DNA of 64,000 bases, taken from positions 347,932 through 411,931 of the forward strand of contig CAVZQN010000003.1 in NCBI GenBank assembly GCA_963777505.1, written 5' to 3'. Both the position numbers and the translations under genes were made by a program. The notes beneath the pieces were generated by a model that was not told the DNA's origin, made no database searches, and saw only the letters and a program-made list of their open reading frames with translations. Origin of the DNA: an uncultured bacterium. GTDB taxonomy: Bacteria; Acidobacteriota; HRBIN11; JAKEFK01. Below are positions 3,788-40,529 of this stretch, one piece after another. Each line of letters starts with the position of its first letter. Position 1 is the first letter of the stretch.

Positions 3788-5218
3788 ATGGAAACCGCAC
3801 GTATTCTGATTATTGAAGATGATCCTGATTTTGGCAGGACTGCAAAATCACTTCTTGAGCAAGAAGGGATGGAAGTTGAAACTGCCAAAACCAGTGCAGA
3901 AGCATTTGAGCGTTTATTGTATTCACCCTTTGATGTTGTTTTGCTTGATCTGGTTCTTGGTGAAGAATCCGGATTGAGTATTCTGCGCGAATTAAATACA
4001 TCAGGCAGCACAATTCCAATCATAATCATGACTGCTCATGCTTCGATCGAAACAGTTACAGAAGCAATGCGGATCAACGCATTCGATTACATACGGAAGC
4101 CATTTGCACGTGAGGAAATTCGAGAGGTTTTGCGAAGAGCCATTTCGGCGGGTGCAAGGTCTGATGAGGAAATAAAGCGAGAGAAGACGGGGAAGACGCT
4201 GCCAATAATCGGCCAGAGTTTCGGCATGGTCGAAGTGTACAAAGCAATTGCGCGTGTTGCTCAAACGGATTCGACAGTTTTAATTACAGGTGAAAGCGGC
4301 ACAGGAAAAGAACTTGTTGCGCGCGCGATCCATGAAAATTCGCTGCGTGCTTCAAAACCATTTGTCGCTGTCAATTGTGGCGCTTTAACCGATACGCTGC
4401 TAGAAAGTGAATTATTTGGTCACATGAAAGGAGCATTTACCGATGCTAAGACTTCGCACCGTGGAATTTTCGAAAGTGCAACCGGCGGTACAGTTTTTCT
4501 TGATGAAATCAGTGAGACTTCTGCAGTTTTTCAAGTCAAACTCCTGCGTGTATTACAACAGCGGACAATCCGTCCAGTTGGAAGCAGTGAAGAACGTCCA
4601 ATCGATGTACGAGTTATTGCAGCTACAAACCGTCCAGTCGATCATTTATTGGCTTCATCGTTCCGGAAAGATTTGTTGTACCGGTTGAGTGTAATCAATA
4701 TTCATATACCAGCACTTCGTGCGCGAATTGATGATATCCCTTTGCTGGCTACAAATTTCTTGCGGAGGTTTAATAAGAGGCAAGGGAAGTCTGTCGTGAT
4801 GGCTCCAGCAACAATCGAATGGATGAAAACACTTCCATGGTCCGGCAATGTCCGCGAGTTAGAAAATGCGATTGAGCGTGCAGTTACGATGAAAGGAACG
4901 GGAGAAATTTTGCCGGAAGATCTTTTACAATTCGGTTTGATTTCACATACTCCTGATGGTGTTATTTTGCCGGAGCCTCAGCACGCAAGACCTGTTGAGC
5001 CGGTTTTAGAACCAGGCCCCCCTTCGTCACTCAAAGATGTGATCCGCAAACATATTTTGGATGTTTTAACGTATACCGGGGGCAACAAACTTCAGGCTGC
5101 AAAAATCCTGGGTGTGGGACGCTATACGCTTTATCGTATGGCGGAACGGTTTGGAATTGATCCTGCAGAGCTTGGGCTATCGCGCGTTAAAAAACGGAAG
5201 ACCGGCAGCGATAAATAG
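3788..5218 (+). CDS. Sigma-54-dependent Fis-family response regulator (NtrC-like)
   Basis: Receiver domain (ILIIEDD..LLDLVL), AAA+ sigma-54 interaction domain (GESGTGKELVARAIH, GAFTDA, ESELFGH), and a C-terminal Fis-type HTH. Confidence 0.9.
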   Translation: METARILIIEDDPDFGRTAKSLLEQEGMEVETAKTSAEAFERLLYSPFDVVLLDLVLGEESGLSILRELNTSGSTIPIIIMTAHASIETVTEAMRINAFDYIRKPFAREEIREVLRRAISAGARSDEEIKREKTGKTLPIIGQSFGMVEVYKAIARVAQTDSTVLITGESGTGKELVARAIHENSLRASKPFVAVNCGALTDTLLESELFGHMKGAFTDAKTSHRGIFESATGGTVFLDEISETSAVFQVKLLRVLQQRTIRPVGSSEERPIDVRVIAATNRPVDHLLASSFRKDLLYRLSVINIHIPALRARIDDIPLLATNFLRRFNKRQGKSVVMAPATIEWMKTLPWSGNVRELENAIERAVTMKGTGEILPEDLLQFGLISHTPDGVILPEPQHARPVEPVLEPGPPSSLKDVIRKHILDVLTYTGGNKLQAAKILGVGRYTLYRMAERFGIDPAELGLSRVKKRKTGSDK

Positions 5219-5284
5219 CCGGGAGTTTGACATCTCGGGAGTGCTCCAATAAGCTTTTCCAATTACGGTATCGAGGGGCGTGGG

Positions 5285-6652
5285 ATGAAATCGTTGACTC
5301 CGGGGACACATCTCGGCCGTTTTAAGCTCAGCAACCTTTTAGGCCGGGGCGGGATGGGAGAAGTTTGGAAGGCGCAAGACGTGCGTCTCGGGCGTGAAGT
5401 TGCAATTAAGATTCTTCCCCCTGAGCTGGCAACCAATCCGGAATTACAAATCAGATTCGATCGCGAAAGTAAAATTCTTGCCGCTCTCAATCACCCTGGA
5501 ATCGCTCAAATTTATGAAGCAAACGAAGAATATCCAGAAGCCCCGGATCATTCAAAGTCGACGACCAAAATCTCATTCCTTGTTATGGAATTTGTTGAAG
5601 GAAGAAGTTTATCTGAAATTTTGGCCAATGGTTCGTTGCCTGTCTTAACGTCAGTCCGGTTGGGACGGCAAATTTCAAAGGCTCTCCACGCAGCACATGA
5701 AGCGGGAATTATTCACCGCGATCTCAAACCTGCAAATATCATGGTTACGACACGCAATCAAGTGAAAGTGCTCGATTTCGGATTGGCGCGGCCCCTGATG
5801 CAGCAGACTCACAGCACGAAGCAAGCTCTTCCGGAAGTAACTACGTCCGGAATGGTTTTGGGTACTGCGGCTTATCTAGCGCCTGAACAAATCAAAGGAA
5901 TGTCAGCAAACATACGCAGCGACATCTGGTCACTCGGCTGCGTTTTATATCAAATGACATCAGGAAAAAGGCCTTTTCCTGCAGATTCAATTCCGGAAGT
6001 TCTTGCCTCTGTATTGCGCGATGAACCTTCAGACGTTTCCACCTTAAATTCATCTGTAACTCCACCTTTAAAAACCCTCATAGAGAAATGTCTGGATAAG
6101 GACCCTGAGAGAAGACCAAAGGATGCCAAAGAAGTGAGTATCGCCTTAAAAGAAATTCTTCAGGAAATGCGTAATGGTCAGCCTTCATCGCCTTCAATGG
6201 AACCAGTGCCACTCTCTGAACTTTCAATAAGCCCATCGATTCAATTGATAAACCGCTACTTGCATATGATTGATTCCACTTTCCCCCAAATTACTGGCAA
6301 AGATGGCAAAGTTGGTTCGATTGAGCTGCAACATCACGGTACGAAGATGGGGCTTCTTGTAGTGCCAAAACCATCAGGGGATAAAGTTATGATCGTGGCT
6401 CCGCTTTGCGGTTTGCCTGAAGGAAACTTGCTGCGCGCCTTTGCAAAACTTCTTTCATTGAATAACGGACACACCGATGTAGCTCGATTTTCAATTGATC
6501 AAGAAACCCGAACAATAAATCTGATTTGCATTCGAAATTGTTCTTCGCTAGACACACGTCAATTGAGAGCGGTGCTCGATACGATGAGCACGTCAGCGCA
6601 GCGCCTGGGAATTCCTTTCATGAATGAATTCGGTCTGAAAGAGGAGAATTAG
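5285..6652 (+). CDS. Ser/Thr protein kinase with a C-terminal YbjN-like (T3SS-chaperone-like) domain
   Basis: Kinase motifs GRGGMGEVW, VAIK, HRDLKPANIM, DFGLAR, APE. The C-terminal ~130 aa are paralogous to the next ORF. Confidence 0.85.
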   Translation: MKSLTPGTHLGRFKLSNLLGRGGMGEVWKAQDVRLGREVAIKILPPELATNPELQIRFDRESKILAALNHPGIAQIYEANEEYPEAPDHSKSTTKISFLVMEFVEGRSLSEILANGSLPVLTSVRLGRQISKALHAAHEAGIIHRDLKPANIMVTTRNQVKVLDFGLARPLMQQTHSTKQALPEVTTSGMVLGTAAYLAPEQIKGMSANIRSDIWSLGCVLYQMTSGKRPFPADSIPEVLASVLRDEPSDVSTLNSSVTPPLKTLIEKCLDKDPERRPKDAKEVSIALKEILQEMRNGQPSSPSMEPVPLSELSISPSIQLINRYLHMIDSTFPQITGKDGKVGSIELQHHGTKMGLLVVPKPSGDKVMIVAPLCGLPEGNLLRAFAKLLSLNNGHTDVARFSIDQETRTINLICIRNCSSLDTRQLRAVLDTMSTSAQRLGIPFMNEFGLKEEN

Positions 6653-6654
6653 AA

Positions 6655-7119
6655 ATGCCCAGGTATGAATCCAACCAGGCAATCATTGGACATCTTCGGC
6701 GTACGAAGGCAACGTTTGATGGATTCACTCCTCAGTCTGTTTCGATGGGTGGACAATCCGTCTCCATGCTTCACGGAAAAGTTGAGTATCGTAATTCAAA
6801 AGTTCATCTTGCACTGCTTACAAGACCTGGCGAAACACATGACACTCTCATTTTTTCACTTCCTACTTTTCGTGTGAATGTTTCAACGGCTGCTGAGATA
6901 TTTGAGCAACTGCTTTCCTGGAATAACGGATCAACAGGCTCGGCACATTTTGCACTGGATGAGTTACTGAACTCGATTAACCTAGTTTGTGTACGAGCTG
7001 TTGAAGGTTTGGATCTTCATGAATTTCAGAATTGCATGGATCAAATGCTGAACGTCCGCTTGAATGCATTGAGTCAGCTGCGAAAGAACTTTGCGGCTTC
7101 TTCATTGGAGGAGTTATGA
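6655..7119 (+). CDS. YbjN-like domain protein, a paralog of the kinase C-terminal domain
   Basis: Shared pattern L.S.NNG.TG.A.F.LD....INL.C.R.....LD...L with the kinase tail, and similarity to E. coli YbjN (LSAINASSLTVKAFLDMQDDNLPKLVVCQSL). Confidence 0.5.
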   Translation: MPRYESNQAIIGHLRRTKATFDGFTPQSVSMGGQSVSMLHGKVEYRNSKVHLALLTRPGETHDTLIFSLPTFRVNVSTAAEIFEQLLSWNNGSTGSAHFALDELLNSINLVCVRAVEGLDLHEFQNCMDQMLNVRLNALSQLRKNFAASSLEEL

Positions 7120-7898
7120 AGAAAGCCCTTCTGTTCGCTATCATTCTTTCCATTTGTTCAATCGCATTCGCTGAGATGACTGTCTTTTTCAAAGACGGCA
7201 CATCAGTTACTGTAACGAAAATCGTATTCAAGGGAAATGTAGCTGAACTTTTTCTCATGAATGGAAAGACCCGCAATGTTGCAGCAGACAAAATTGATTT
7301 GAAAGCGAGCGGTATTCCTAAAGCTGAAGGAAGTTATGGACAGGCAGGCCTTTCTTCCAATGCACGCGAAACGCGTACTGCAACCCCGCCACTTATTGGA
7401 GATTCAAAACAACGGCAACTCGCGTTAAAAGAAGAATGGGACAAAGCTGAACAATCGGCTGTGGCCTTAAAAACAATTGGTTCAATACGACAAGGAGACA
7501 TTGTCAGGATCGTTAACCGGGCCGCTTCAGGCTCGACTCCTGCTCCTCCTCCTTCTGATTATGAATCTCTTGAGGATTTTGATGTAGAGTCGCTTCAAGA
7601 AGGTACCTTCATGCAAACGAAGGATGAACCCTTCCTGGTAATCTTCAAAACTGCGGAAGGAATTTATGGCAAGAAACTCTTTGACACGGCAACCTTCCAT
7701 TCCAACTTTAGTATCAATGAAAAGGCCACTGAACCTCCGCCTGCGATCGTTAAAGTTCCTGAACCGACAATAAAGATTCCGAATCCAGAAGAAACTCCTG
7801 TTAAGACTGAACCTTTGCCCTCACCGGAGCCATCGATACAAGAAGAAGAGGCAGCAACAACGGTGCCTGAAGAAACAGAAACACTCAAACAAAAGTGA
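7117..7898 (+). CDS. Secreted hypothetical protein with a Pro/Glu/Thr-rich C-terminal tail
   Basis: GGAGG RBS then ATG. Signal peptide MKKALLFAIILSICSIAFA. Low-complexity PEPTIKIPNPEETPVKTEPLPSPEPS. The start overlaps the upstream stop. Confidence 0.55.
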
Positions 7899-8509
7899 CG
7901 ACGCGCAGTTTCTCGATTGCTCCGCTTTTAATTGGTATTGCAGGGATCGTTCTTGCAGGCGGTGCATTGTTCGTATATTCGAGAAATCGGAAAAAGCCTT
8001 TTGTGAACACTTCACAATTTAAACAATATGAAAACGAACTGCGTGATTTTGAGTTGGAGGTCTGGCTGAAGCACGGACGTACATTGGATCAACTTATCGA
8101 AATTTGTCTGAAGAAGTTTTATCAAGACCAACCTGCCGCGCTGGGGGTTGCTATTAAAATTCAAAAAGGTGCTGATCGTTCAAGTGTCATCCAGTCAATT
8201 GCCAGACAAAGTGGTCTGACCATTGGTTCTGCTGAAGATATTTACTCCGAAATGTTTCACAGAATTAATTGGATTCGTGAAATGATACGCCAGGTTTCTG
8301 AAAAAGTCGGGAAACAACCTCTGACGCATCCTGAAAGTGTATCTGCACCTGCGCAACCGGTTTCACATCCAAAACCTGAGACATCTACTCCGAAAGTGTC
8401 AGATCCTAAACCAGAAACCTCCGCAAAGCCATCTCAGGCCGTCGCCACAACCGGCTTACCTGTCTATCTCCGCAATGCCCTCAAACAGCTCGGCGAGCTA
8501 TCGGATTGA
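7895..8509 (+). CDS. Membrane-anchored hypothetical protein with a Pro/Thr-rich C-terminus
   Basis: GTG start overlapping the upstream TGA (GTGA). N-terminal TM helix IAPLLIGIAGIVLAGGALFVY. PKPETSTPKVSDPKPETSAKP repeats. Confidence 0.5.
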   Translation: MTTRSFSIAPLLIGIAGIVLAGGALFVYSRNRKKPFVNTSQFKQYENELRDFELEVWLKHGRTLDQLIEICLKKFYQDQPAALGVAIKIQKGADRSSVIQSIARQSGLTIGSAEDIYSEMFHRINWIREMIRQVSEKVGKQPLTHPESVSAPAQPVSHPKPETSTPKVSDPKPETSAKPSQAVATTGLPVYLRNALKQLGELSD

Positions 8510-8536
8510 TTCTTTGCGTTTTGTAGTTAAAGGTTC

Positions 8537-11059
8537 TCACAAGATTTTCAGCTGATGATCTTTTTGTTTCAACGCAAAACCGCTCGCAACTAGAAATACG
8601 ACTGTAAATAGAACGAGAACGACCTGATCCCTTATTTTGGAATCTGGATGGTCGATCCATACGAAGAGCCGCGCATTATTCCTCAATCGTCTTTCAGATC
8701 GTTGCAATTCATCGCGAGCGTCTTCCATGTTCTGCTGTTCGTGTTTCAAGTCTCTTGAAATTCTGTCGGCATCGTATCTCAGCGTATTCAGTTCCACAAA
8801 GTCGGCGACATCACCCATCTTCTCAAGAATTTCATCTAATTCATTTTGCAATGAGCTGATCCGCTCTTGTGCTTCTTCCATTTCGTTTTGGCTCAGATCG
8901 ATTGATTGCTCAAGGCTGTCTTTTAGTTGCAAGGAAGGAAGTTCAAATTGCTTCTTCATGAGGTTATAAGACCATTTGCTGATCATGACTTCGCCAAATA
9001 TTTTTTGAGTTCCTTTCAGTTCGCCGAATATTCCGGAAAACAAGACCTGAGGAATCAGGAGAATCGGAACAAGAGCAATCGCTTTGTCAGGCGAATTTAC
9101 AATTGAGCTAACCAGGAGACCCAGCGAGACGCCAGCTACTCCACAAAGAAGCAGAGGCCAGTATGCATGAAGGAATTTATCCGGTGTTAGTAATGCAAGA
9201 ACAACACATTGCAATGCGAGCAAAATCGAGAGCACAACAAATTTTGAACTCAGATATGGAACAATCCCCAGGTTCACCATTCGTTCTCGCCGATACAGCG
9301 GAAGTTCTTTGCAGATTTCACGAGCCGAGTTATTGCAACCAAACCAAAGAGCGGCAAGCGCCATCATGAACAACCGGCTGCTGAGATTTGTTGTGGCTAT
9401 ATAAATAAAAAACGTAATTAATGGTGCTTGAGCAAGCAACAAGCCTGTATTCTTGCGATCTCTCAGTATGATTTCCAGATATCGTTTTGCCAGAGTTATG
9501 CCCTGATGAACAGGATGTGATGGAGCTTCAGGCAGCCGTTCTGTCGATTGGGATGTTGAGCGCTTTGATGGAAGTATCTGATCGCGCGCAAGATTGATGT
9601 CATTGCGATGAGTTTCGGTCTTTTGAAATTCATCCTGCCATTCTTCTGCAGGACGGTTTTTGATTCGCGAATAAAGCGCGCTCAGTGTATTAACTTGAAA
9701 AAAGTTCATTGCGTCTTGAGGGCTGCCAAAAAAGATGACACGTCCGGAATGCATCAGAACAATTCGTGAAAACATCATTGCATGTTCAAGAAGGTGAGTT
9801 GTTAGAATCGTAATTCTTCCATCCTGAGAAAGCTTTTTGAAAAGCACCATTAGCTTTTCATCCAATGCCGGATCCAACCCGGAAGTCGGTTCATCAAGGA
9901 AAAGAATTCCAGGTTTTGTAAGAAGCTCAATTGCAATATTGACCCGCTTGCGTTGTCCGCCGCTCAATCGATGAACGGGTAAACGTTCCTGATCTTCAAG
10001 TTCGAGTTCGATCAAGGTTTCCTTCACCCGGATCTTGCGTTCTTTTTCCGACATATCAAGAGGCAGCCGCAACTTCGCCGCATAACGAAGCGTTTGCTCA
10101 ACTGTTAGTTCGCGATGAATAATGTCGTCTTGAGGTACAAATCCAATATTTCTTTTGAAGAGATCGAAGTGTGTGAATACATCCAATCCGTTTAGTTGAA
10201 CTCTACCTGCTGATGGCAAAATCTGTCCGCTTAAACATTTCATCAACGTCGTTTTTCCTGATCCACTTGGACCGATCAGGCCGATCAGTTCATTGGAATT
10301 ACAGACAAGCGTTCCACGATCGATGATTCTTTTTTCGCCGGCAGATACGCTGATTTGCCATCCGATCAACTGGCTTTGCTGCTGCAGTGTATAAATGTTG
10401 AGGAATTCGCCGGTGAATAGCAGCATGTAAGGCATGATCAAAACAGATTCCCCAGGTGAAAGTGGAGTCCGATGAATGAGCCTATCGTTTACATATGTAC
10501 CGTTGGAACTTCGTAGATCTTCCAGGTAGAGGATGCCGTTATTTCGTTCCAACCTTGCATGCATAGAAGAAACCTGCGGATGATTGAGCACAACGTCACA
10601 GCCTTCATTTCTTCCGATAAGGAGTGGAAAACGGGTCAGAAGTTTTTGGCTGACAAATCCTGAAACCTGCATTTCACCAAGACTTGGTGCCTGGGCAGCA
10701 TTAGATTTTTGGGCTTTTTCTGCTGTGAGATGACGTCCGAATGAACCAAGTTCAGTTCGTTCAGAAGACGGAATTCGTCGACACAAGAATTCAATCCCAT
10801 CGATTGAAAAAGTTTCACCATTTTGCAGGAGAGCTTGATGGCATAGATTTTCGCGATATTTGAACAGAATGTCGGGTTGAGCTGAACGCACCGAGAGACC
10901 TTCACCGGAAGGTTCTATATTCAAATGGTGTGAACGCACATGGGGTGAACTAATTCGAATGTGGCTCTGAGGGCCACTTCCAAGGACGTTAATGCCTGTT
11001 GTTAAAGGAATAACCCGTTCTTCAGACTTGCCGGGAGCCTGGACCAGAACAAGATCCAT
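8537..11059 (-). CDS. ABC exporter with two N-terminal FHA domains, an ABC ATPase, an ABC-2 transmembrane domain and a C-terminal coiled coil (Rv1747-like architecture)
   Basis: FHA1 (~res 10-100) and FHA2 (LLIGRNEGCDVVL..SSMHARLE..LEDLRSSNGTYVN). Walker A GPSGSGKTT, signature LSGGQRKRV, Walker B ILFLDEPTSGLD. Multi-TM region, then a coiled coil and one more TM helix. Confidence 0.85.
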   Translation of the reverse strand: MDLVLVQAPGKSEERVIPLTTGINVLGSGPQSHIRISSPHVRSHHLNIEPSGEGLSVRSAQPDILFKYRENLCHQALLQNGETFSIDGIEFLCRRIPSSERTELGSFGRHLTAEKAQKSNAAQAPSLGEMQVSGFVSQKLLTRFPLLIGRNEGCDVVLNHPQVSSMHARLERNNGILYLEDLRSSNGTYVNDRLIHRTPLSPGESVLIMPYMLLFTGEFLNIYTLQQQSQLIGWQISVSAGEKRIIDRGTLVCNSNELIGLIGPSGSGKTTLMKCLSGQILPSAGRVQLNGLDVFTHFDLFKRNIGFVPQDDIIHRELTVEQTLRYAAKLRLPLDMSEKERKIRVKETLIELELEDQERLPVHRLSGGQRKRVNIAIELLTKPGILFLDEPTSGLDPALDEKLMVLFKKLSQDGRITILTTHLLEHAMMFSRIVLMHSGRVIFFGSPQDAMNFFQVNTLSALYSRIKNRPAEEWQDEFQKTETHRNDINLARDQILPSKRSTSQSTERLPEAPSHPVHQGITLAKRYLEIILRDRKNTGLLLAQAPLITFFIYIATTNLSSRLFMMALAALWFGCNNSAREICKELPLYRRERMVNLGIVPYLSSKFVVLSILLALQCVVLALLTPDKFLHAYWPLLLCGVAGVSLGLLVSSIVNSPDKAIALVPILLIPQVLFSGIFGELKGTQKIFGEVMISKWSYNLMKKQFELPSLQLKDSLEQSIDLSQNEMEEAQERISSLQNELDEILEKMGDVADFVELNTLRYDADRISRDLKHEQQNMEDARDELQRSERRLRNNARLFVWIDHPDSKIRDQVVLVLFTVVFLVASGFALKQKDHQLKIL

Positions 11060-11223: not shown

Positions 11224-11820
11224 ATGGTCGGCGATGAGAAAGAACTGTTATATCGAGCGCAACAAGGGGATGAAACTGCATTCCAACAGATTGTCGAGAA
11301 GTATAAGCGGCAAATGTACTACCTCGCCCTCGATCTTACAGGAAATCATTATGATGCCGAGGATTTGTCTCAGGAGGCTTTCGTGAAGGCGTATACATCG
11401 ATTCAAGGTTTTCGTGGGGATGCGAAAATTAGTTCCTGGCTTCATCGGATTGTGGTCAATGCCCATCTTGATGAACGCCGGAAAAAATCACTTACACTCC
11501 TGCGAACGAGCGATGAATTAAATGAAAGCCTGACTTTGCATTCAGCTGGCGGAAGCGGATTTGAAACCAATCCGGAAAAGAAGATGGAACAATCCAAAAT
11601 GCAGGAGCACATCGAAGAAGCCCTCAAAACGTTAACACCAAGAGAGCGTTCCATTTTTGTTTTACGTCATTATCAGGAACATGCTCTAAAGGAAATTGCG
11701 GAGATGCTGGAACTCAGTGAAGGAACTGTAAAGAGTTTCTTATTTCGTGCGATTAAGAAGCTTCAAAAGGCCCTTTCCAAATATGAATTCCGATTTGAAG
11801 CGAGGAGTTCCAATGAATAA
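11224..11820 (+). CDS. ECF-family RNA polymerase sigma-70 factor
   Basis: Sigma-70 region 2 (AFQQIVEKYKRQMYYLA, SWLHRIVVNAHLD) and region 4 (RERSIFVLRHYQEHALKEIAEMLELSEGTVKSFL). Confidence 0.85.
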   Translation: MVGDEKELLYRAQQGDETAFQQIVEKYKRQMYYLALDLTGNHYDAEDLSQEAFVKAYTSIQGFRGDAKISSWLHRIVVNAHLDERRKKSLTLLRTSDELNESLTLHSAGGSGFETNPEKKMEQSKMQEHIEEALKTLTPRERSIFVLRHYQEHALKEIAEMLELSEGTVKSFLFRAIKKLQKALSKYEFRFEARSSNE

Positions 11821-12631
11821 CTGCGAGAAATTTGAAGATCAATTCGTTGATGCTTTGTATGACGAACTAAAATCTCAGCCAAAGGAAGATTTCGATTCAC
11901 ATTTAAAGGAATGTGCACAATGCAGAGCTCTTTATCAGACAATGCAAAAGACGCTTAACGTGATGGATGAAAGGATTCATCCGGAACTTTCACCAGAATA
12001 TTGGCAGCAATATGATGCGTCATTGCAGAATCGTCTCTCTGAGGTGAAGTCGAAAGATAAAGACAAAGGGAAAGTCATATCATTCAATAAAATTCCTGGT
12101 TGGGCTCTTAAAGCGGCAGCAGCATTCATTCTTGTAGGGCTTGGAATATTGATCGGACGTTATTATATGGCGCCTGAACCAGCGAAGATCGTAGTTAAAG
12201 ATGCACAGCCGGCACTTCCAGTACACAGGGCTTCATTGGATCCTGAAACAAGACGGTTTTTGGAACGATCTGAAATCTTACTTGTAGGGATTGTGAATTT
12301 AGAACCAGAGGAAGATAGCACTTATTCAACAGATTTAACAGCTCAAAAGAAAATGTCACGGGAATTGATTCAGCAAGCCCCGGTAATTCGAGCAAATCTA
12401 AAAGGCCCGGAACGCCGGCGTCTTACACAATTGGTTTCCGATCTTGAATTGATCATGCTTCAAATTGCAAATCTTGAAGCTGAAAGTGATGTGCCTGAAA
12501 TTGAGCTTGTGAAAAGCGGCGTAGACCGCAAAGGGGTCTTGTTCAAAATTAATGTGGAACAAATGCGTATGTCGGGTGCCGCCGAAAGTAAACCGGATCA
12601 AAACAAAACATCCGGTGAGAAGAAACTATAG
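11813..12631 (+). CDS. Anti-sigma factor, zinc-finger (ZAS) type, single-pass membrane protein
   Basis: RBS AGGAG then ATG. HLKECAQC is an H-x3-C-x2-C motif. TM helix ALKAAAAFILVGLGILIG. Overlaps the ECF sigma stop. Confidence 0.65.
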   Translation: MNNCEKFEDQFVDALYDELKSQPKEDFDSHLKECAQCRALYQTMQKTLNVMDERIHPELSPEYWQQYDASLQNRLSEVKSKDKDKGKVISFNKIPGWALKAAAAFILVGLGILIGRYYMAPEPAKIVVKDAQPALPVHRASLDPETRRFLERSEILLVGIVNLEPEEDSTYSTDLTAQKKMSRELIQQAPVIRANLKGPERRRLTQLVSDLELIMLQIANLEAESDVPEIELVKSGVDRKGVLFKINVEQMRMSGAAESKPDQNKTSGEKKL

Positions 12632-12647
12632 TGGAGGAAATGAGACT

Positions 12648-14240
12648 ATGAAAGGTGGAGGAAAGAAAATAATGGCCATTGCGTTAGCATTTTTCGCGAT
12701 GGTTTTGGCGGCTCAACTAAATGCAACAACGATAGCGTATTATGCCGATGGTACTCCCGGCGGTAAGGACGAAGCATCAAAAGCTTATAGAGTTGCCTAC
12801 GATTTGTTTTTAAATGAAGAATGGGACAAGGCAATTCCAGCTTTGCAGGGAGTAGAAAAACAGTTTCCAAAAAGTTCAGTTGCAGATGACGCTGCATTTC
12901 ATGCCTGTTATGCATTGGACATGTCTGGCAAATCACGAGAAAAAACATTCGCATGCTATGACCAGTTTGTAAAAAAGTATACGAGCAGTAATTTTCTCGG
13001 TGATGCAACTCAAAATATGATCCGGCTTGGTAATGATTTGGCGGGAACTGATCCAAAGTACAAAGCAATGATTGAAGGATTCAATAACAGCAAAAACATA
13101 GAATTGAAATTGCTTGCGTTACAGGCATTGTTGGATTCTGAGGGAGATGAGCAAGCTCTTCCCATGATCATCAATTTGTACGACAAACTTGAGAAACCGG
13201 CAGATCGTGAAAAAGTTTTATGGATCATGAATGATATTGAAGATCCAAAGGTTATCGTTAAGATGTCAACAATCATTCAAACAGATCCATCTGTAGAGAT
13301 CCGCAAGAAAGCAGTCTATGCACTTGGGGATCGTGGGCCAGAGGCTACACCAGAATTGAAGAAGGTTCTGGCTTCTAAGAATGATCTTGAAGTTCGTAAG
13401 GCTGCATTACATGCGCTTTCGAACACAGAGGATCCAGGCGTGGTCAAAATTTTAGGAGATGTTGCATCAACAGAATCGAATGAAGAACTCGCCAAGGCTG
13501 CAACGTATGCTCTTGCTGACGTGGAAAATCCTGACGCAATAGTTGCCTTGCAATCGATCTTAAAATCTCAAATCAGTGTTGAAGTTCGAAAAGCAGCGCT
13601 TCATGCGCTGGCTGATCATGGTGGTGGAACGTCTGTCGCCACGTTGAAGCAAGTCGCATTAAATGATTCGACTGGAGAGTTACGCAAGACCGCCACATAT
13701 GCGATTGCCGATGATGATACAAAGGAATCATTCGAAGCATTAAAAGAAATTTTGGCGACAAGCAAAGATCCTGAAGTGCAGAAGGCCTCCTTATACGCAA
13801 TTGCCGACAATGTAGGGCCAGGAGCGGCAGACATATTAATGCAAACTGCAATTAACAATCCGCAAGAGGAACTTGCAAAAGCGGCAGTTCATGCACTTGC
13901 AGAAGCAACGGAAGGCGATACGGCTCTACTGCTTCAGGTATTTCAGAAAGGGAAATTTCCTGACGTAAAAAAAGTTGCTCTCTATGCAATTGGCGAGCGC
14001 AAAGGAAAAAGTGCCATTGATTCACTTTCTAAGATTTTGAAAGAAGAAAAAGAAGAAGAATTTCGTGTTGTCGCTTTGTATGCTCTAGGAGAAGTTGGCG
14101 ATGCTGCAGTGCCAATCTTGTTGCATACAGCAACCAATGATCCAAGTACTAGAATCCGTACGACTGCTGTTCAGATGCTTGGAAACATTGGAACACCTGC
14201 AGCGAAAGATGCATTGATGAAAATTCTGGAAAAAGAATAA
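12648..14240 (+). CDS. Secreted HEAT-repeat (PBS-lyase type) protein with an N-terminal TPR-like region
   Basis: GGAGG RBS. Signal peptide MKGGGKKIMAIALAFFAMVLAAQLNA. At least nine E(V/L)RK(A)A..AL(A/G)D repeats. Confidence 0.75.
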   Translation: MKGGGKKIMAIALAFFAMVLAAQLNATTIAYYADGTPGGKDEASKAYRVAYDLFLNEEWDKAIPALQGVEKQFPKSSVADDAAFHACYALDMSGKSREKTFACYDQFVKKYTSSNFLGDATQNMIRLGNDLAGTDPKYKAMIEGFNNSKNIELKLLALQALLDSEGDEQALPMIINLYDKLEKPADREKVLWIMNDIEDPKVIVKMSTIIQTDPSVEIRKKAVYALGDRGPEATPELKKVLASKNDLEVRKAALHALSNTEDPGVVKILGDVASTESNEELAKAATYALADVENPDAIVALQSILKSQISVEVRKAALHALADHGGGTSVATLKQVALNDSTGELRKTATYAIADDDTKESFEALKEILATSKDPEVQKASLYAIADNVGPGAADILMQTAINNPQEELAKAAVHALAEATEGDTALLLQVFQKGKFPDVKKVALYAIGERKGKSAIDSLSKILKEEKEEEFRVVALYALGEVGDAAVPILLHTATNDPSTRIRTTAVQMLGNIGTPAAKDALMKILEKE

Positions 14241-14257
14241 CCAGATACGCAGCAGAA

Positions 14258-14313
14258 AACGCCGAGGCGCTTGGAATTTCTAGAATTCCTGGCGTACTCG
14301 GCGTTTAGAATTT
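14258..14313. terminator. Long hairpin between convergent genes, probably a bidirectional terminator
   Basis: AACGCCGAG...CTCGGCGTT stem enclosing a GGAATTTCTAGAATTCC near-palindrome, followed by TTAGAATTTT. Confidence 0.35.
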
Positions 14314-14314
14314 T

Positions 14315-14344
14315 AACCGCAAAGACTCTGAGCCTCTGCGGTAA
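14315..14344. repeat. Dispersed palindromic repeat, family 1 (TAACCGCAAAGACNCAAAG-type)
   Basis: TAACCGCAAAGACTCTGAGCCTCTGCGGTA. ACCGCA/TGCGGT arms form a hairpin. Confidence 0.6.
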
Positions 14345-14351
14345 GAAAACT

Positions 14352-15092
14352 CTACCGTAAGCCGAATTTTGGGTTCAGTTCGACACGATCGGTACCATTT
14401 CCATAATAAATACCCCAGCGGATATCGCCATTGATGTGTCGAATTTTTACAGGCGCATAGTGACGTCGTTGTGGAAGATTCAATTCTTTTTCAATTCTAT
14501 TAATGAAAGAAACAGTATCACCTTTCACAAGACTATTTTTTTCAATTGCCTTTTTGTTCGGATCTTTCAATTCGAGATGACGATGTGCGAGTTCATGCAA
14601 AAATATCATCCCAATATCGAACGCCTCTCGTGGAAGATCGCGGAATACAATTTCTCCGAGATCACTAAAATCAAGTTCGATGTAATCGGTTGAAGTCACA
14701 CGTCCTAAATCAGCATTCCGGTTTTCTCGCACCTTATAAACACTCGAGTTCCGCAAGGCACTCAGTAGTAATTCTTTTCCAGTTGACGAGCATCGCCGAT
14801 CTGCAGGAATAGCTCTTTCAAGTCTGTAAACTGATGCCAGACTTGCATACAACGATCTTGGAGGTTCATACAATCTCAGATAATGATTCTTGACCTCTAG
14901 AGAAAGACAAGTAATCCTTTCAAGAGATTGAATTAATTCTGAGGATCTTGACTGCGTGCTGGCAACAGCCACGACACCGGTATTATTTGCTTCTGTGGTT
15001 TCGAAATAAATGAAGCCTTCTAAGGTATCATTTATGAAGAGGAATGAGATTGCGACTAAAGCAATAAGGCCTGAACTTACTTTTAGGTTCAT
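14352..15092 (-). CDS. Secreted hypothetical protein with a HExxH motif (putative zinc metallopeptidase)
   Basis: N-terminal signal/TM segment. FLHELAHRH motif. No other recognisable family. Confidence 0.45.
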   Translation of the reverse strand: MNLKVSSGLIALVAISFLFINDTLEGFIYFETTEANNTGVVAVASTQSRSSELIQSLERITCLSLEVKNHYLRLYEPPRSLYASLASVYRLERAIPADRRCSSTGKELLLSALRNSSVYKVRENRNADLGRVTSTDYIELDFSDLGEIVFRDLPREAFDIGMIFLHELAHRHLELKDPNKKAIEKNSLVKGDTVSFINRIEKELNLPQRRHYAPVKIRHINGDIRWGIYYGNGTDRVELNPKFGLR

Positions 15093-15239
15093 AGCAAAAC
15101 TCTCCTGAATGTTGCATGGTTTGCTATTACGTGCCGTTTGATTTACTCAAATCAACACGCGGTGAACCGTAAAAGAGAGCTGCTATAATTAGAGTTTGTC
15201 TTTCGTAAAAAAGTTTACATATTAAATAAACGAGGTAAC

Positions 15240-15722
15240 ATGGCAAATCGTTCCGCAGTTATTGAAACCAACAAAGGAAATATCAAATTCGAACTTCTGG
15301 AGCAGGATGCTCCCAAGACGACTGAGAATTTTATTCGTCTTGCAGAAAAGGGTTACTACAATGGGATCATTTTCCATCGGGTCATCAAGGGGTTTATGAT
15401 TCAGGGTGGTGATCCAACGGGTACCGGCCGCGGCGGCGAATCCGCATGGGGTGGACGATTTGACGATGAAATCAATTCAAAGTCAGATGTCTATGTCCGG
15501 GGATACAAAGCAGGAACTGTCGCGATGGCGAACGCTGGTCCGAATACGAACGGTTCGCAGTTTTTCATCATGCATAACGACTATCCCTTGCCTCCCAGTT
15601 ACACAATCTTCGGCCGCGTTACCGAAGGTCAACAAGTAGTTGATGAAATCGCGAATACACCTATAGGGCCAAATGATCGGCCACAAGCTCCTATAACAAT
15701 GGCCCGTGTAACGATAGAGTAA
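15240..15722 (+). CDS. ppiB: Peptidyl-prolyl cis-trans isomerase, cyclophilin type
   Basis: FHRVIKGFMIQGGDP, GGESAWG, GSQFFIMH motifs. Confidence 0.9.
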   Translation: MANRSAVIETNKGNIKFELLEQDAPKTTENFIRLAEKGYYNGIIFHRVIKGFMIQGGDPTGTGRGGESAWGGRFDDEINSKSDVYVRGYKAGTVAMANAGPNTNGSQFFIMHNDYPLPPSYTIFGRVTEGQQVVDEIANTPIGPNDRPQAPITMARVTIE

Positions 15723-15726
15723 TTTT

Positions 15727-15746
15727 TACCGCAAAGACTCAAAGCC
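15727..15746. repeat. Family 1 repeat copy
   Basis: TACCGCAAAGACTCAAAGCC, directly after the ppiB stop. Confidence 0.55.
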
Positions 15747-15869
15747 TTTCTTGTAAACGCGTTCCGTCCTGAGACTCGTCTAATCTGCAGGTAGGGGATA
15801 AACCTTTTCGTGACAAAAGGCGGTCTACTGGGACGATCCCGCATATTTGGGATGCCATAAGGAAGAGAC

Positions 15870-18518
15870 ATGAAACGCGTACCGTTCACATTTATGATCC
15901 TGGTCTTTGGATTTACAGGAGCACTTTTTTCTGAAGAATCACCATCAACTGAACTGCAGGTACTGGCAGTGCGCTCAATTCAAAAAATAGAGCTTGATGG
16001 AAAACTGAATGAACCATCCTGGAAAGATGTATATGCCATCTCACGGTTTGTTCAAAGGGATCCAAAAGAAGGATCAGAAGCGTCTGAAAAAACATTAGTA
16101 GATGTTCAGTATGATGATGATGCCATTTATATCGGCGCCCGGATGTACGATTCCGATCCAGCCAAAATTGAAGCACGATTAGGTCGCAAAGATGGAGTGC
16201 TTTCTTCTGATTCATTCTATGTTTACATCGATCCGTTCCACGACAAGAGAACAGGCTATTACTTCGGCATTAATGCAGCAGGGACTCACTACGATGGCAC
16301 ATTGATGAATGATAGCTGGAACGACAGTTCATGGGATGGAGTTTGGGAAGGCAAAGCATCAATCGATGAAAAAGGCTGGACTGCCGAAATACGGGTTCCT
16401 TATTCACAATTGAGATTCAAAAAAAATAACCAGTACGTTTGGGGAATTAATTTTAAGCGCGAAATTTCACGAAAAAATGAAATTGATTATCTTGTCTATA
16501 CTCCAAAAAACGGCAGCGGTTTTGTTTCAAGATTCCCAGATCTTGTTGGCATTGAAAAAATTGAACCAAAACAAAGCATTGAAGTCATTCCCTATGTCAC
16601 TTCTCGCGGCGATTTTTTAGATTATGAGCAAGGAGATCCATTCAATGATGGAACAGGTTATGACATGGGAGTCGGAGGCGATGCACGAATTAGTCTCGGC
16701 ACAAACTTAACGCTGAACGCAACCGTGAATCCCGATTTCGGACAAGTTGAAGTCGATCCCGCAGTAGTCAATTTAAGTGACGTTGAAACGTTTTATCCCG
16801 AAAAACGTCCATTTTTCGTTGAAGGTTCCAACAATTTTGCTTTTGGGGAGGGCGGGGCTACGAATTATTGGGGATTTAACTGGATGGGTCCAGATATTTT
16901 TTATAGCCGCCGTATCGGACGCGCTCCTCAAGGAACGGTCGATGAATACGATTATCAGGAGTTTCCGGATGGCACTCAAATTTTGGGCGCGGCGAAACTG
17001 ACCGGCCAGGTTGTTAATGGATGGAACCTCGGAACTCTACACGCTCTAACTGGAAGCGAAACGGCACAGCTGGCTAGCTCTGACACGATCTTTGAACAAG
17101 AAGTAGAACCATTGAGTTACTACTCTGTTTCACGCATGCAAAAAGAATTCAATGGCGGCCGTCAGGGAATGGGATTTATCAACACAATTACAAGCCGTAG
17201 TTTCAAAGATCAAGTATTAGAGGACCAAATCGCAACCAATGCAGTGGTTCTTGGATTGGATGGCTGGACATTTCTGGATGAGGAAAAGAAATGGGTTGTT
17301 ACTGGATTTACGGCAGCATCTCGTGTAGGTGGAAACGAATCAGCAATGACAGCTCTTCAAGAGAGCTCACGTCATTACTTTCAACGGCCGGATCAAAATT
17401 ATCTGAGCGTAGATGAAGATGCAACATCGATTAATGGTGGAATCGGCCGCGTTTGGTTAAATAAAGAAAAGGGCAATTTCATTTTTAATTCTGCAGTCGG
17501 TTTTATTTCTCCCGGCTTCGATGTCAACGATCTCGGATTCATGTTTCGCGCAGATCAAATCAATGGCCATGTTGGTGGCGGCTATAAATGGACCACACCT
17601 GGAAAGTACTTCCGATACGCTGAGGTGATCGGTTCCGTTTTCAGAAGCTATGATTTCGATTTGAACGATACCTGGAATGGTTTATGGAATCTTGTTTATC
17701 TGGAATTCCCGAATTATTACACATTGGAAACAACATTTGCTGTAAATCCTGAAGAGACAATCAACAATTCTCGCACGCGGGGCGGGCCATCAAGTCTTAA
17801 CCTTCCAGGTTTCGAAGTCGGAATGATATTGAAATCCGATCTTCGTAAGAAATGGGTCTTTGGCGGAACATTCAATTCTTATGAGGCAGATACCGAACGG
17901 TACCGCGCGATTGGCGGAAGCGTTGAATGGAAGCCGGTAGCAAATGTCTTAATCAGTGCCGCACCAAGGTATGAATATGCCCTGAATCCAGCCCAATATA
18001 TCGATACATTTGAAGATTCATCTGCATCTTTTACCTATGGGAGCAGATATGTTTTCGGCGAATTAGATCAAAAGACATTTTCAGCCGGTTTGCGGCTGAA
18101 TTGGACGTTTTCGCCAACGCTGAGCCTGCAACTTTATGGGCAGCCTCTTGTTTCAGCCGGAAAATATACCGATTTTAAAGAACTCGCCATCCCACGAAGT
18201 TTTACATTCAATCACTATTCCGAAACCGGACACATTCAATTCGATGGCGAAAAGTATCTTATTGATCCGGATGGACCTGGACCAGGATTACCGGTCGAAT
18301 TCGATAATCCTGACTTTAATTTCAAGTCTCTGAGAGGAAATGCAGTTTTACGATGGGAATATCGTCCTGGTTCGACACTTTACTTCGTTTGGACTCAAAC
18401 CCGTGAGGAAGATGTCCCGGTTGGAGATTTTCAATTCTCACGCTCTGTAGGAAAGATTTGGAATATCCCTGCAGATAATATTTTTATGGTGAAATTTACA
18501 TATTACTGGAATTTTTAG
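15870..18518 (+). CDS. Secreted CBM9-like / DUF5916-type large beta-rich protein
   Basis: Signal peptide, then ELDGKLNEPSWKD..DDDAIYIGARMYD (CBM9-like), then a long Gly/aromatic-rich region ending YYWNF. Confidence 0.55.
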   Translation: MKRVPFTFMILVFGFTGALFSEESPSTELQVLAVRSIQKIELDGKLNEPSWKDVYAISRFVQRDPKEGSEASEKTLVDVQYDDDAIYIGARMYDSDPAKIEARLGRKDGVLSSDSFYVYIDPFHDKRTGYYFGINAAGTHYDGTLMNDSWNDSSWDGVWEGKASIDEKGWTAEIRVPYSQLRFKKNNQYVWGINFKREISRKNEIDYLVYTPKNGSGFVSRFPDLVGIEKIEPKQSIEVIPYVTSRGDFLDYEQGDPFNDGTGYDMGVGGDARISLGTNLTLNATVNPDFGQVEVDPAVVNLSDVETFYPEKRPFFVEGSNNFAFGEGGATNYWGFNWMGPDIFYSRRIGRAPQGTVDEYDYQEFPDGTQILGAAKLTGQVVNGWNLGTLHALTGSETAQLASSDTIFEQEVEPLSYYSVSRMQKEFNGGRQGMGFINTITSRSFKDQVLEDQIATNAVVLGLDGWTFLDEEKKWVVTGFTAASRVGGNESAMTALQESSRHYFQRPDQNYLSVDEDATSINGGIGRVWLNKEKGNFIFNSAVGFISPGFDVNDLGFMFRADQINGHVGGGYKWTTPGKYFRYAEVIGSVFRSYDFDLNDTWNGLWNLVYLEFPNYYTLETTFAVNPEETINNSRTRGGPSSLNLPGFEVGMILKSDLRKKWVFGGTFNSYEADTERYRAIGGSVEWKPVANVLISAAPRYEYALNPAQYIDTFEDSSASFTYGSRYVFGELDQKTFSAGLRLNWTFSPTLSLQLYGQPLVSAGKYTDFKELAIPRSFTFNHYSETGHIQFDGEKYLIDPDGPGPGLPVEFDNPDFNFKSLRGNAVLRWEYRPGSTLYFVWTQTREEDVPVGDFQFSRSVGKIWNIPADNIFMVKFTYYWNF

Positions 18519-18646: not shown

Positions 18647-19444
18647 ATGTTGATGGTTCCGTTGAGTGTGTTGAGTGGTGATACGGGATTGCTGGACAAG
18701 GATAGCCGGGAACGCATCAGGGTATTAATCATTGATGCTGAACGCGTCGAACGTGAACGTGTTGGCGAAATGCTTAAAGAAGACCCGGGTGTAGAAGTTA
18801 TTGGTGAATATGACAACGGTATCGAAGCTCTAGCTGCAATCCGAAATCTTCATCCTGATCTGATCATTCTGGATATCCATATTCCAGGAATTGACGGATT
18901 TTCACTTCTTGAATCTATTCCAAGGGATCGTCTTCCCGCTGTCATTTTTGTCACCGCTTTCGACCGGTATGCCCTTCGAGCATTTGAAGTTTCTGCTCTT
19001 GATTATCTTTTGAAACCGTTTGGTATCGATCGATTCCGTAAAGCAATGCGTCGAGCAAAAGTTCAAATGAAAAGGGGAAAAGTTGAAGAAGAAAAGAGAG
19101 AAATTGACCGAATTGCAATCAGAACAGGTAAGAAGGTCTTTTTTCTAAAGTCGGAAGAAATTGATTGGATTGAAGCTGAAGGGAATAGCGTCAGGTTACA
19201 TAGTGGACAACAATCTCACGTGATTCGCACTTCTATCAGTTTGTTGGAATCGGAACTAGATTCCGAAAAATTCGTAAGAATACATAGATCAACAATTGTA
19301 AATGTGGATCGAGTTCGATGGCTTGAACCATCAGCTCATGGAAACTACCGCGTAATCCTGCACGATGGTACTCAGTTGGTTCTAAGCAGGAAGGACAAGC
19401 TTTCTCAAGTAACGGGCAATTCGCTTCGGGATCATGCAAGATGA
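18647..19444 (+). CDS. LytTR-family two-component response regulator (orphan)
   Basis: Receiver domain (RVLIIDAE..LIILDIHIPGIDGF) and a C-terminal LytTR domain (FVRIHRSTIVNVDRV). No histidine kinase is adjacent. Confidence 0.85.
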   Translation: MLMVPLSVLSGDTGLLDKDSRERIRVLIIDAERVERERVGEMLKEDPGVEVIGEYDNGIEALAAIRNLHPDLIILDIHIPGIDGFSLLESIPRDRLPAVIFVTAFDRYALRAFEVSALDYLLKPFGIDRFRKAMRRAKVQMKRGKVEEEKREIDRIAIRTGKKVFFLKSEEIDWIEAEGNSVRLHSGQQSHVIRTSISLLESELDSEKFVRIHRSTIVNVDRVRWLEPSAHGNYRVILHDGTQLVLSRKDKLSQVTGNSLRDHAR

Positions 19445-40100: not shown

Positions 40101-40529
40101 GAAAAATATTATCGAAAAGCTCTTTCAGTACGGCAAGGACAAGGTTCAGCCCAGAGAAGATTAGGCCATCTTTATATTCTGCAAGCTCAGCATGAACTTG
40201 AATCCGGAGGCGATCCGCGCGGCGCGATCCGCAAAGCTGAAGAAGCTTTAAAGAAAGCTGCAGAAATTGAACCGGATGAATATGAAGTGCTGGTATCTAA
40301 AGCTCAAACTGAAGTGCTGAAAGCTCGTGATGCAATCATTCGAGGCAGCAATCCCAATAAATATTTTGCTCAAGCCGACAAATTCTTTGAAGAGGCGTTG
40401 AAAATAAATCCAGATTATCCCCAAATCTTGCTGGCAAGATCTCAACGCGATTTTTTTGAAGCGGAATGGAAACTGAAGGCGGGTAAGGATGCAACAGAGA
40501 ATGTTGTATCGCGGACTCACCACAACTGA
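37125..40529 (+). CDS. Ser/Thr protein kinase with one TM helix and a C-terminal TPR-like repeat region of about 750 aa
   Basis: GEGGMGRVF, VALK, HRDIKPANIM, DFGLAR, APE motifs, then a TM helix (IATAALIVLAAAVLIYLVV), then more than 12 repeats. Confidence 0.85.
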   Translation: MNQDQETILLTLALKKGLLNEKDVQNAEGQENAGQRVDWLVKQGRIDRSTIDLLLNSGEFKAETKQPSAGAISIENFREPGAPAFPVSNWDRYEFEKYLGEGGMGRVFKAVDLRLKRNVALKFMMSTAGGRTKRLIREAQALARIHHDNVCQVYEIGEVEGNLYIAMQYVEGVTLDHADVDSFSLQEKVRIMLETAEGLHAAHQTGIIHRDIKPANIMIRKSEEGTWHPVLMDFGLARETEDEGITGTGFIVGTPAYMAPEQATLESEQLDRRTDIYSLGATMYNLFTGQAPFSGTTPLEIIRKVNEKDPEPLSNLNPQIPADLQRVVMKCLEKQRERRYQSAKELAEDLQRFLQGEPVLARPMHSIHRKFRRVVRNKIATAALIVLAAAVLIYLVVTIRSRAEIQNRLRLANEFVQEVRYVDEFMRHALTAPLHDIRPERQNVRERLKQFEKRVIESGAAGAGPGAYVMGRGHLALKEPETARKWLEKAIAANYKVPEVDYALGLTLGELFQKESEEADRIPNKQLRESRKKELEKEFKEPAIALLRSTQKLQVESPEYAEALILFYDRQYSKALTKLSEALIRVPWLYEAQVLQGKIYSAQAQDARDRGSNDTAMELFLKADESYRNAMGLGRSDPSPYSAACGLWVQVMNLNLYGAGGELEPHLQKVRKNCGLALKADPDLELAYLEQSHALKLISESRIGRGLDPSEYLKESEDLAQKALKLSPRNARAYNQIGMTLTMRGLYEYEIGSDPTESLKKARNYLQSSISVNPTYVYAHNNLGICNLYYGDYLLSRSEDPSPPIKDAIHAFEQAIQIKPDYSGAFNNMGNAYLSLAEWDFTHGKDPFPYAQKAVSSYQNAVKANPAESYTLQNLGLAYTQLASYEIEKNIDPTPHTTQAIDAYEQAIQINPENTGGYVNLAVTFLYRAEYDMEHGKNPETDLNSAIKSSLKAVEINPSEFRSLTNIGSAYKNRAEYFLMTGKYSSEDFSQAEKYYRKALSVRQGQGSAQRRLGHLYILQAQHELESGGDPRGAIRKAEEALKKAAEIEPDEYEVLVSKAQTEVLKARDAIIRGSNPNKYFAQADKFFEEALKINPDYPQILLARSQRDFFEAEWKLKAGKDATENVVSRTHHN

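Follow-up and report, generated by a model that had tools for sequence, protein, structure and literature searches.

The 64-kb stretch of DNA from an uncultured member of the Acidobacteriota analyzed here, hereafter the window, carries near its start a compact group of four genes. Three of them follow one another on the forward strand and encode a Ser/Thr kinase of the Hanks type that ends in a YbjN/CesT-like domain, a free-standing paralogue of that domain and a bitopic membrane protein. The fourth lies on the reverse strand, converges on the other three and encodes an ABC exporter with N-terminal FHA domains (Table 1). All open reading frames (ORFs) are found where the initial annotation of the window had placed them. 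Two nucleotides separate the stop codon of the kinase gene from the start of the paralogue gene, the stop codon of the paralogue overlaps the ATG of the membrane-protein gene (ATGA), and a spacer of 27 bp lies between the membrane-protein and exporter genes. The GC content is even, at 0.41-0.48, over the first 16 kb of the window.

A four-gene core in eight lineages

Related loci, designated by L-numbers, were compared with the window. Kinase fusion, YbjN-like paralogue, membrane protein and convergent FHA-ABC exporter occur in this same order in eight distinct lineages: the window with L006; L001, L002 and L007; L003; L004, L005 and L013; L008; L009, with the closely similar L012, whose sequence stops short of the exporter gene; L010; and L011. 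The ABC core is 63-81% identical between lineages, and the flanking genes are unrelated. In the clade of the window they encode the histidyl- and aspartyl-tRNA synthetases (HisRS, AspRS), MoxR and a sigma-54 regulator; in L003, a methyltransferase and RecG; and downstream in L004, GatC and an amidase. The four genes shared by all lineages constitute the conserved core. The initial annotation had suggested a survey of the gene neighbourhood in related genomes, and conservation of the four-gene order is what such a survey found.

Common gene types can also come to lie side by side through shared ancestry in one narrow lineage, without any functional link. The spread of the cassette is indeed narrow: scans with motifs of the membrane protein returned 3 species genomes and 4 metagenome loci, and because these are few, the survey rests on the eight lineages. 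In L001, moreover, the exporter gene is found 5 kb off, behind an insertion sequence (IS) element. Yet the four genes stay together while the flanks differ completely between lineages, the YbjN paralogue and the membrane protein essentially never occur without the present kinase, and the domains match in their logic, with a kinase, an FHA domain as reader and a linker Thr that is invariant. We therefore consider it distinctly unlikely that the genes are unlinked.

The sigma-54 activator upstream of the kinase had been counted as part of the same module. Its gene is co-directional with the kinase gene, 66 bp away, and the product does have the domains of an NtrC-type response regulator. The gene is present in L001, L002, L006 and the P0002 contig and absent from L003, L004 and L008-L013; it is clade-specific and was placed outside the core because the other lineages lack it. 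The P0002 contig, like the P0160 contig, was compared by its gene list. A search for the sigma-54 promoter motif (TGGCAC-N5-TTGCW, at most two mismatches) gave matches at chance level (38 observed, 34 expected), none of them in the intergenic regions of the cassette. Scans for sigma-70 promoters and terminators returned counts at or below the shuffle expectation and were uninformative, and no terminator-like hairpin was detected in the 27-bp spacer. Ten base pairs of this spacer (8510-8519, TTCTTTGCGT) are absent from L006.

Several neighbouring genes were recorded alongside. In five of the eight lineages (L004, L008-L011), genes for a secreted VWA protein and an OmpA-family protein are found upstream of the kinase gene and divergent from it, on the minus strand (L004, 252-1163; L008, 1156-2773; L009, 2921-4487; L010, 302-1859; L011, 224-1739). 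The VWA protein is about 305 residues long and 66-77% identical between lineages, and the OmpA-family protein, of about 205 residues, has a lipoprotein-like N-terminus; no homologue of either was found within the 64-kb window. The two proteins may be partners of the cassette in the envelope that are specific to this clade, or their position may be mere synteny. In L001, the insert between the exporter and the other three genes (13422-17963) holds the IS, with an HTH_Tnp_1 + rve transposase, several small ORFs and a DHOR-family gene, on a contig shared with L007. In the window, genes for an extracytoplasmic function (ECF) sigma factor, a zf-HC2 anti-sigma factor and a HEAT-repeat protein of 562 residues (11224-14240) probably form an operon divergent from the exporter gene; this block was placed outside the cassette because, among the fetched loci, only L006, from the same species, has it. 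Further away are a second, unrelated Ser/Thr kinase of 1134 residues with Pkinase and TPR repeats (37125-40529), a LytTR response regulator (18647-19444) and a HAMP histidine kinase (28593-30248). Among the genes scanned (about 2300-45800 of the window), none for a PP2C phosphatase was seen.

Table 1. Positions of the cassette genes, the adjoining regulator gene and the protein features discussed in the text, numbered from the first nucleotide of the window.
Feature	Position	Strand	Basis
NtrC-type sigma-54 response regulator	3788..5218	+	Response_reg + Sigma54_activat + HTH_8 (Pfam, NCBIfam)
Kinase-YbjN/CesT-like fusion, 455 aa	5285..6652	+	Pfam Pkinase E 7e-53, CesT E 3e-7
Kinase catalytic domain, residues 14-279	5324..6121	+	Pfam Pkinase
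YbjN/CesT-like domain of kinase, ~residues 316-455	6230..6649	+	alignment to free paralogue, Pfam CesT, 2PLG profile match
Free YbjN/CesT-like paralogue, 154 aa	6655..7119	+	Pfam CesT 23.9 bits
Bitopic membrane protein gene, 464 aa when intact	7116..8509	+	ORFs 7116-7898 and 7895-8509 in the window
1-bp deletion site, AAACC to AAAC	7881..7882	+	comparison with L006
Transmembrane helix of membrane protein (IAPLLIGIAGIVLAGGALFVY)	7916..7984	+	hydropathy 2.36; helix 269-290 in model
Conserved C-terminal peptide of membrane protein (GLPVYLRNALKQLGELSD)	8453..8506	+	23-sequence alignment; predicted helix 450-463
FHA-FHA-NBD-TMD half-transporter, 840 aa, ABC-2/ABCG-ABCA type	8537..11059	-	Pfam FHA, ABC_tran, ABC2_membrane
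FHA1 of exporter, residues 1-96	10772..11059	-	hhalign, AlphaFold2, Foldseek
Thr102, inter-FHA linker of exporter	10754..10756	-	alignment of 32 orthologues
FHA2 of exporter, residues 140-216	10412..10642	-	Pfam FHA E 9e-22
Coiled-coil insertion of exporter, ~residues 690-805	8645..8992	-	hydropathy/topology; JetC/MukB model matches
NBD, nucleotide-binding domain; TMD, transmembrane domain; aa, amino acids.

The kinase, the YbjN/CesT-like domains and the membrane protein

About 45 full-length homologues of the kinase were collected, with identities of 47-99%. All 45 family members keep the HRDLKPAN and DFG motifs, and 42 of them keep VAIK; with its catalytic motifs intact, the Hanks kinase is active-looking. 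A hydropathy scan finds no hydrophobic segment that could serve as a transmembrane (TM) helix, indicating that the kinase is soluble.

The kinase domain scores strongly against the PADLOC models for PD-T4-6 and mad6, and TY-chaperone domains have been reported from conflict systems (PMC9503650), raising the question whether the cassette serves in conflict or in defence against phages, with the Ser/Thr kinase as effector or sensor, as in kinases of the PD-T4-6 type, and TY-chaperone proteins as accessories. The PADLOC matches, however, are confined to generic kinase and ABC ATPase domains, with none for the YbjN-like or membrane proteins. In the clade of the window the flanks are mostly housekeeping genes, and such neighbours, among them GatC/amidase and RecG, occur in other lineages as well; the cassette does not lie in a variable island, and an ABC core as conserved as that of the exporter also speaks against a role in defence. 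Because the PADLOC matches are to generic domains only, this reading was set aside, and we regard it as extremely unlikely.

The C-terminal region of the kinase was analyzed together with the 154-residue protein encoded next to it, which the initial annotation had described as a free-standing paralogue. Residues 346-441 of the kinase match Pfam CesT (PF05932) with 30.9 bits, and the free protein also scores above the cut-off of 22. Kinase C-termini and free proteins of about 150 residues from the eight lineages can be aligned end to end and find each other in reciprocal tblastn searches, which bears out the description. The fused and free copies form two clean groups with a between-group identity of 21-29%, and orthologues of the free paralogue, 39-64% identical, are present in all eight lineages. 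The superfamily was assessed with 16 members, the fused and free copies of the eight lineages, each scanned singly against Pfam. CesT was matched by 13 of the 16 (best E 3e-8), CesT_Tir_1 by four and TY-Chap1 by one, while a direct match to Pfam YbjN was weak and limited to one member (E 0.005). A profile built from the 16 sequences matches a single entry of the PDB, 2PLG (Tll0839), with an E-value of 4.9e-9; this structure is a distantly related YbjN protein (PMC5398634). The label YbjN, given to both domains by the initial annotation, is thus right at the level of the superfamily, as the CesT matches and the 2PLG profile match indicate, and finds little backing in the Pfam YbjN model itself. 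By sequence, the kinase C-terminus and the 154-residue protein are ancient paralogues with a predicted CesT/YbjN chaperone fold.

This subfamily is rare as judged by sequence searches. When 1.84 billion representative proteins were searched exhaustively by phmmer with the free paralogue, only 17 relatives emerged at E<=1e-3, one of them above the Pfam YbjN cut-off and another above the CesT cut-off. One phmmer match, P0273, a protein of 2694 residues with four apparent stretches, was rejected as spurious, being an insect-allergen repeat protein. The free paralogue is mildly acidic, with an isoelectric point (pI) of 6.3, and the C-terminal domain of the kinase is basic (pI 8.5). Text searches of the literature retrieved no publication linking YbjN-type domains to Hanks kinases, none on a Hanks kinase fused to a YbjN/CesT-type domain or on the present cassette, and none on FHA-ABC transporters in Acidobacteria.

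Downstream of the paralogue, the initial annotation had read two translationally coupled exported proteins with Pro/Thr-rich tails. They are the two halves of one frameshifted gene for a bitopic membrane protein. Over 16.7 kb the window and L006 share 98.8% identity, and L006 has a single ORF of 464 codons at this place; the only indel within the gene relative to L006 is a C missing from the window near position 7881. The gene is uninterrupted in all eight related loci. Products of 450-519 residues were recorded for relatives at this position, the single protein has 435-534 residues over all relatives, and the database homologues, which have no Pfam domain, are single proteins in 24 of 24 cases (417-534 residues). 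At position 2331 the window differs from L006 by a further 1-bp indel, an additional G in AAAGG, which splits a gene for a hypothetical protein of 267 residues into ORFs 2064-2354 and 2308-2868. Two coding frameshifts within 16.7 kb point to assembly errors or strain-specific gene lesions. A programmed -1 frameshift at CAA-AAG-TGA (7887-7898) was considered and rejected, since the reading frame is uninterrupted in the 99%-identical relative and in every other homologue, and a neighbouring gene is likewise broken by the indel at 2331.

Hydropathy and an AlphaFold2 model both predict a signal peptide and one TM helix for the membrane protein, with the N-terminus outside and the C-terminus inside. 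The model has a mean predicted local distance difference test (pLDDT) score of 63.8, with well-predicted domains alternating with disordered stretches. The protein begins on the periplasmic side with SH3-like beta domains (21-75, and 97-133 with 173-201), followed by a linker that is rich in Pro, Glu and Thr and disordered (204-268). After the TM helix (269-290) come a bundle of helices in the cytoplasm (302-398, pLDDT about 88), a tail that is again disordered (407-445) and a terminal helix (450-463). Fold searches with the periplasmic part gave weak SH3-like similarity only. In contrast to the variable tail before them, the last 18 residues, GLPxYLKNxLKxLGxLSD, are conserved: among 23 sequences P449, Y451 and L462 are invariant, and L452, L456, L459 and S463 are at least 90% conserved. 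Conservation of this kind makes the C-terminal peptide a candidate docking motif.

This topology also bears on the earlier suggestion that the Pro/Thr-rich tails accept phosphate from the kinase. The first such stretch is predicted to be periplasmic and would thus be inaccessible to a kinase in the cytoplasm. The cytoplasmic tail of the membrane protein remains a candidate, together with a threonine of the exporter, Thr102, described below; these two fit better as acceptors than the Pro/Thr-rich tails.

The FHA-ABC exporter

Pfam detects FHA (residues 147-207), ABC_tran and ABC2_membrane in the 840-residue exporter. The NBD is nearest to ABCA and ABCG proteins in the PDB, the Walker A, signature, Walker B and H-loop motifs are all present, and hydropathy gives six hydrophobic segments in the membrane domain. 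About 39 orthologues have identities of 59-100%, after which identity falls to about 42%.

The exporter had been described as carrying two FHA domains that bind phosphothreonine (pThr). Both folds are there, and the binding residues are found in the second only. In FHA2 the motifs GR, SxxH and SSNGT are kept in 32 of 32 orthologues, and its matches in the PDB are FHA domains, including FHA-1 and FHA-2 of Rv1747. Sequence searches detect FHA2 alone, not FHA1. Aligned with the profile of FHA2 by hhalign, FHA1 reaches a probability of 95.7% (E 8.7e-9); its AlphaFold2 model has a pLDDT of 92.5, and in a Foldseek search the 50 best PDB matches are all FHA domains, with template modelling scores of 0.7-0.83, FhaA, GarA, MDC1, Rv1747 FHA-1 and YscD among them. 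The pThr-binding Arg, Ser and Asn are not conserved in FHA1, where LGS/HH replace the binding motifs, and the domain is missing from seven of the 32 orthologues and from L003. Profile and model thus argue for a genuine FHA fold in FHA1, and the alignment of orthologues shows the domain to be degenerate and dispensable.

The linker between the two FHA domains is variable except for Thr102, which lies in the motif [ED]-x-T-[EQ] and, in the alignment of the 32 orthologues, is invariant wherever the linker exists. Its conservation makes Thr102 a putative phospho-acceptor.

A charged coiled coil of about 115 residues is inserted between TM5 and TM6 of the exporter; it is periplasmic by topology and matches the coiled-coil models of JetC and MukB. 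An insertion of this kind is unusual, and CesT, the family found by Pfam in the YbjN-like proteins, comprises chaperones of type III secretion system (T3SS) effectors. One could read the two together as kinase-regulated protein export, in which the YbjN-like proteins are true secretion chaperones that feed polypeptide cargo to the exporter. ABC-2 transporters of the ABCG/ABCA type, however, handle lipids, glycans and small molecules and are not known to handle polypeptides, and from this class the substrate is more likely to be a lipid or a glycolipid/polymer than a polypeptide. The membrane protein, which is the sole candidate for a cargo, comes with a Sec-type signal peptide of its own and with a stop-transfer helix, and one of the two chaperone copies is covalently joined to the kinase. 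In addition, Pfam found no T3SS family among the scanned genes, which cover part of the window and the related loci. A role of the YbjN-like proteins as chaperones for exported polypeptides is very unlikely.

Proposed mechanism and comparison with known systems

With moderate confidence, and by analogy, we propose that the core is a phospho-signalling cassette similar to PknF/Rv1747 that gates an exporter of the ABCG/ABCA type, and that the YbjN-like pair takes the place of a membrane anchor and sensor of the kinase. PknF phosphorylates two Thr in the inter-FHA linker of Rv1747, which activates the transporter, and both FHA domains of Rv1747 bind the linker pThr sites (PMC3138270, PMC8339232). 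The present cassette retains this logic in its kinase, its invariant linker Thr, its canonical FHA2 reader and its intact ATPase. Proteins with the fold of YbjN and the class I chaperones form dimers around which partner peptides are wrapped (PMC5398634). In the mechanism that we envisage, the YbjN-like domain of the kinase would pair with the free paralogue, and the pair would clamp an extended peptide in the manner of class I chaperones. The most likely target of such a clamp is the C-terminal tail of the membrane protein, with the inter-FHA linker of the exporter as an alternative. The clamp would tether the anchorless kinase to a trans-membrane sensor, making up a receptor kinase from separate parts. 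The kinase could then phosphorylate Thr102 of the exporter, and possibly Ser/Thr residues in the tail of the membrane protein, and binding of pThr by FHA2 would alter the activity or clustering of the exporter, comparable to the effect of PknF on Rv1747. The net effect would be to couple an envelope signal to phosphorylation of the exporter. The more specific version, in which a heterodimeric YbjN clamp on the tail of the membrane protein makes the soluble kinase a split receptor kinase that switches the FHA-gated exporter, is tentative, and we hold it to be possible rather than probable.

The same domains can be read as governing dimerisation of the kinase instead of docking. The C-terminal domain would form a homodimer and allow activation in trans, the free paralogue would be either a decoy that keeps the kinase monomeric and off or a protein needed for switching it on, and the membrane protein would be a substrate or an unrelated neighbour. 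YbjN and the class I chaperones are obligate dimers, with conserved residues at the core and the dimer interface (PMC5398634), and Hanks kinases such as PknF are thought to require dimerisation for activation (PMC8339232). Retention of the fused and free copies in every lineage is also consistent with such a role. What dimerisation leaves unexplained is a membrane protein with a conserved terminal peptide whose gene is translationally coupled to that of the paralogue in every lineage. On balance we consider it unlikely that the YbjN-like modules act in this way instead; the two readings are not mutually exclusive.

Several observations weigh against a gated exporter cassette as proposed here. 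The exporter gene is convergent with the kinase operon and is not co-transcribed with it, and in L001 the IS element and other genes stand between it and the remaining three. The cassette encodes no phosphatase. In the window itself the membrane-protein gene is broken. All lineages fall within one narrow group of Acidobacteriota, so that part of the synteny may reflect shared descent and not selection, even though the flanks do differ. Finally, the choice of a binding partner for the putative YbjN-like pair is a guess.

YbjN-family proteins are widespread, and their mechanism is poorly understood. In the present cassette one such domain is part of a kinase and comes with a paralogue, which suggests a concrete role that is open to testing, that of an adaptor binding peptides in Ser/Thr signalling. 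If the proposal is correct, this would be the first defined molecular role of a YbjN-type domain in phospho-signalling and a new route by which bacterial Ser/Thr kinases are coupled to the envelope. The practical impact is limited, as the family is rare and confined to uncultured bacteria.

The closest known relatives of the YbjN-like pair are the YbjN family (E. coli YbjN, Erwinia AmyR, Deinococcus DR1245 and Tll0839/2PLG) and the T3SS class I chaperones (CesT, SycH and SicP), with which the pair shares a domain of about 140-150 residues and, by hidden Markov models and the 2PLG profile match, the superfamily. Known members of the YbjN/CesT family stand alone, whereas here one copy is fused to a kinase and a second adjoins it. 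Unlike the T3SS chaperones, the present copies have no T3SS context among the genes scanned, and their pI values of 6.3 and 8.5 also set them apart.

The exporter shares its domain order with a wider family of FHA-ABC_tran-ABC2_membrane proteins from Acidobacteriota, Planctomycetota and Elusimicrobia. Many of these have a coiled coil giving Pfam SMC_N matches, which probably reflect an insertion like that of the present exporter. They are longer (950-1200 residues) and only about 35-42% identical to the exporter of the window, and the contexts examined lack the YbjN-fused kinase, the paralogue and the membrane protein. At one locus of this family (L014) no kinase gene lies directly upstream. 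At another (L015, 5446-11210), on a 5.4-Mb contig with P0191, a member of the wider family that is largely annotated as Pyrinomonadaceae, a gene for a Ser/Thr kinase of 809 residues lies directly upstream of, and co-directional with, that for an FHA-FHA-ABC exporter of 1069 residues. L015 represents the arrangement of PknF/Rv1747 outside Actinobacteria; a second kinase with an FGE-sulfatase domain is encoded nearby.

The initial annotation had likened the locus of the window to the mycobacterial PknF/Rv1747 pair, and the architecture supports the comparison in part. In both systems an FHA domain, a disordered linker, a second FHA domain, an NBD and a 6-TM ABC-2-type domain make up the exporter, the gene for a Hanks kinase lies close by, and the linker Thr is placed as T150/T208 of Rv1747 (also numbered T152/T210). 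Sequence similarity to the FHA domains of Rv1747, compared as PDB chains, is weak (E 0.005-0.03). The likeness does not extend to the kinase and its operon: PknF is a transmembrane receptor kinase co-transcribed with Rv1747, whereas the present kinase is a soluble protein with a YbjN/CesT-like C-terminus, and its gene and that of the exporter converge. FHA-1 of Rv1747 is required, whereas the present FHA1 has lost its binding residues and does not occur in 7 of 32 orthologues. Nothing in the mycobacterial system corresponds to the free YbjN paralogue or to the bitopic membrane protein. The cassette would thus carry the idea of Rv1747, in which FHA domains mediate the phospho-regulation of an ABC exporter, beyond mycobacteria and into Gram-negative Acidobacteriota of the soil, with a different wiring that uses a soluble kinase and a separate membrane partner.

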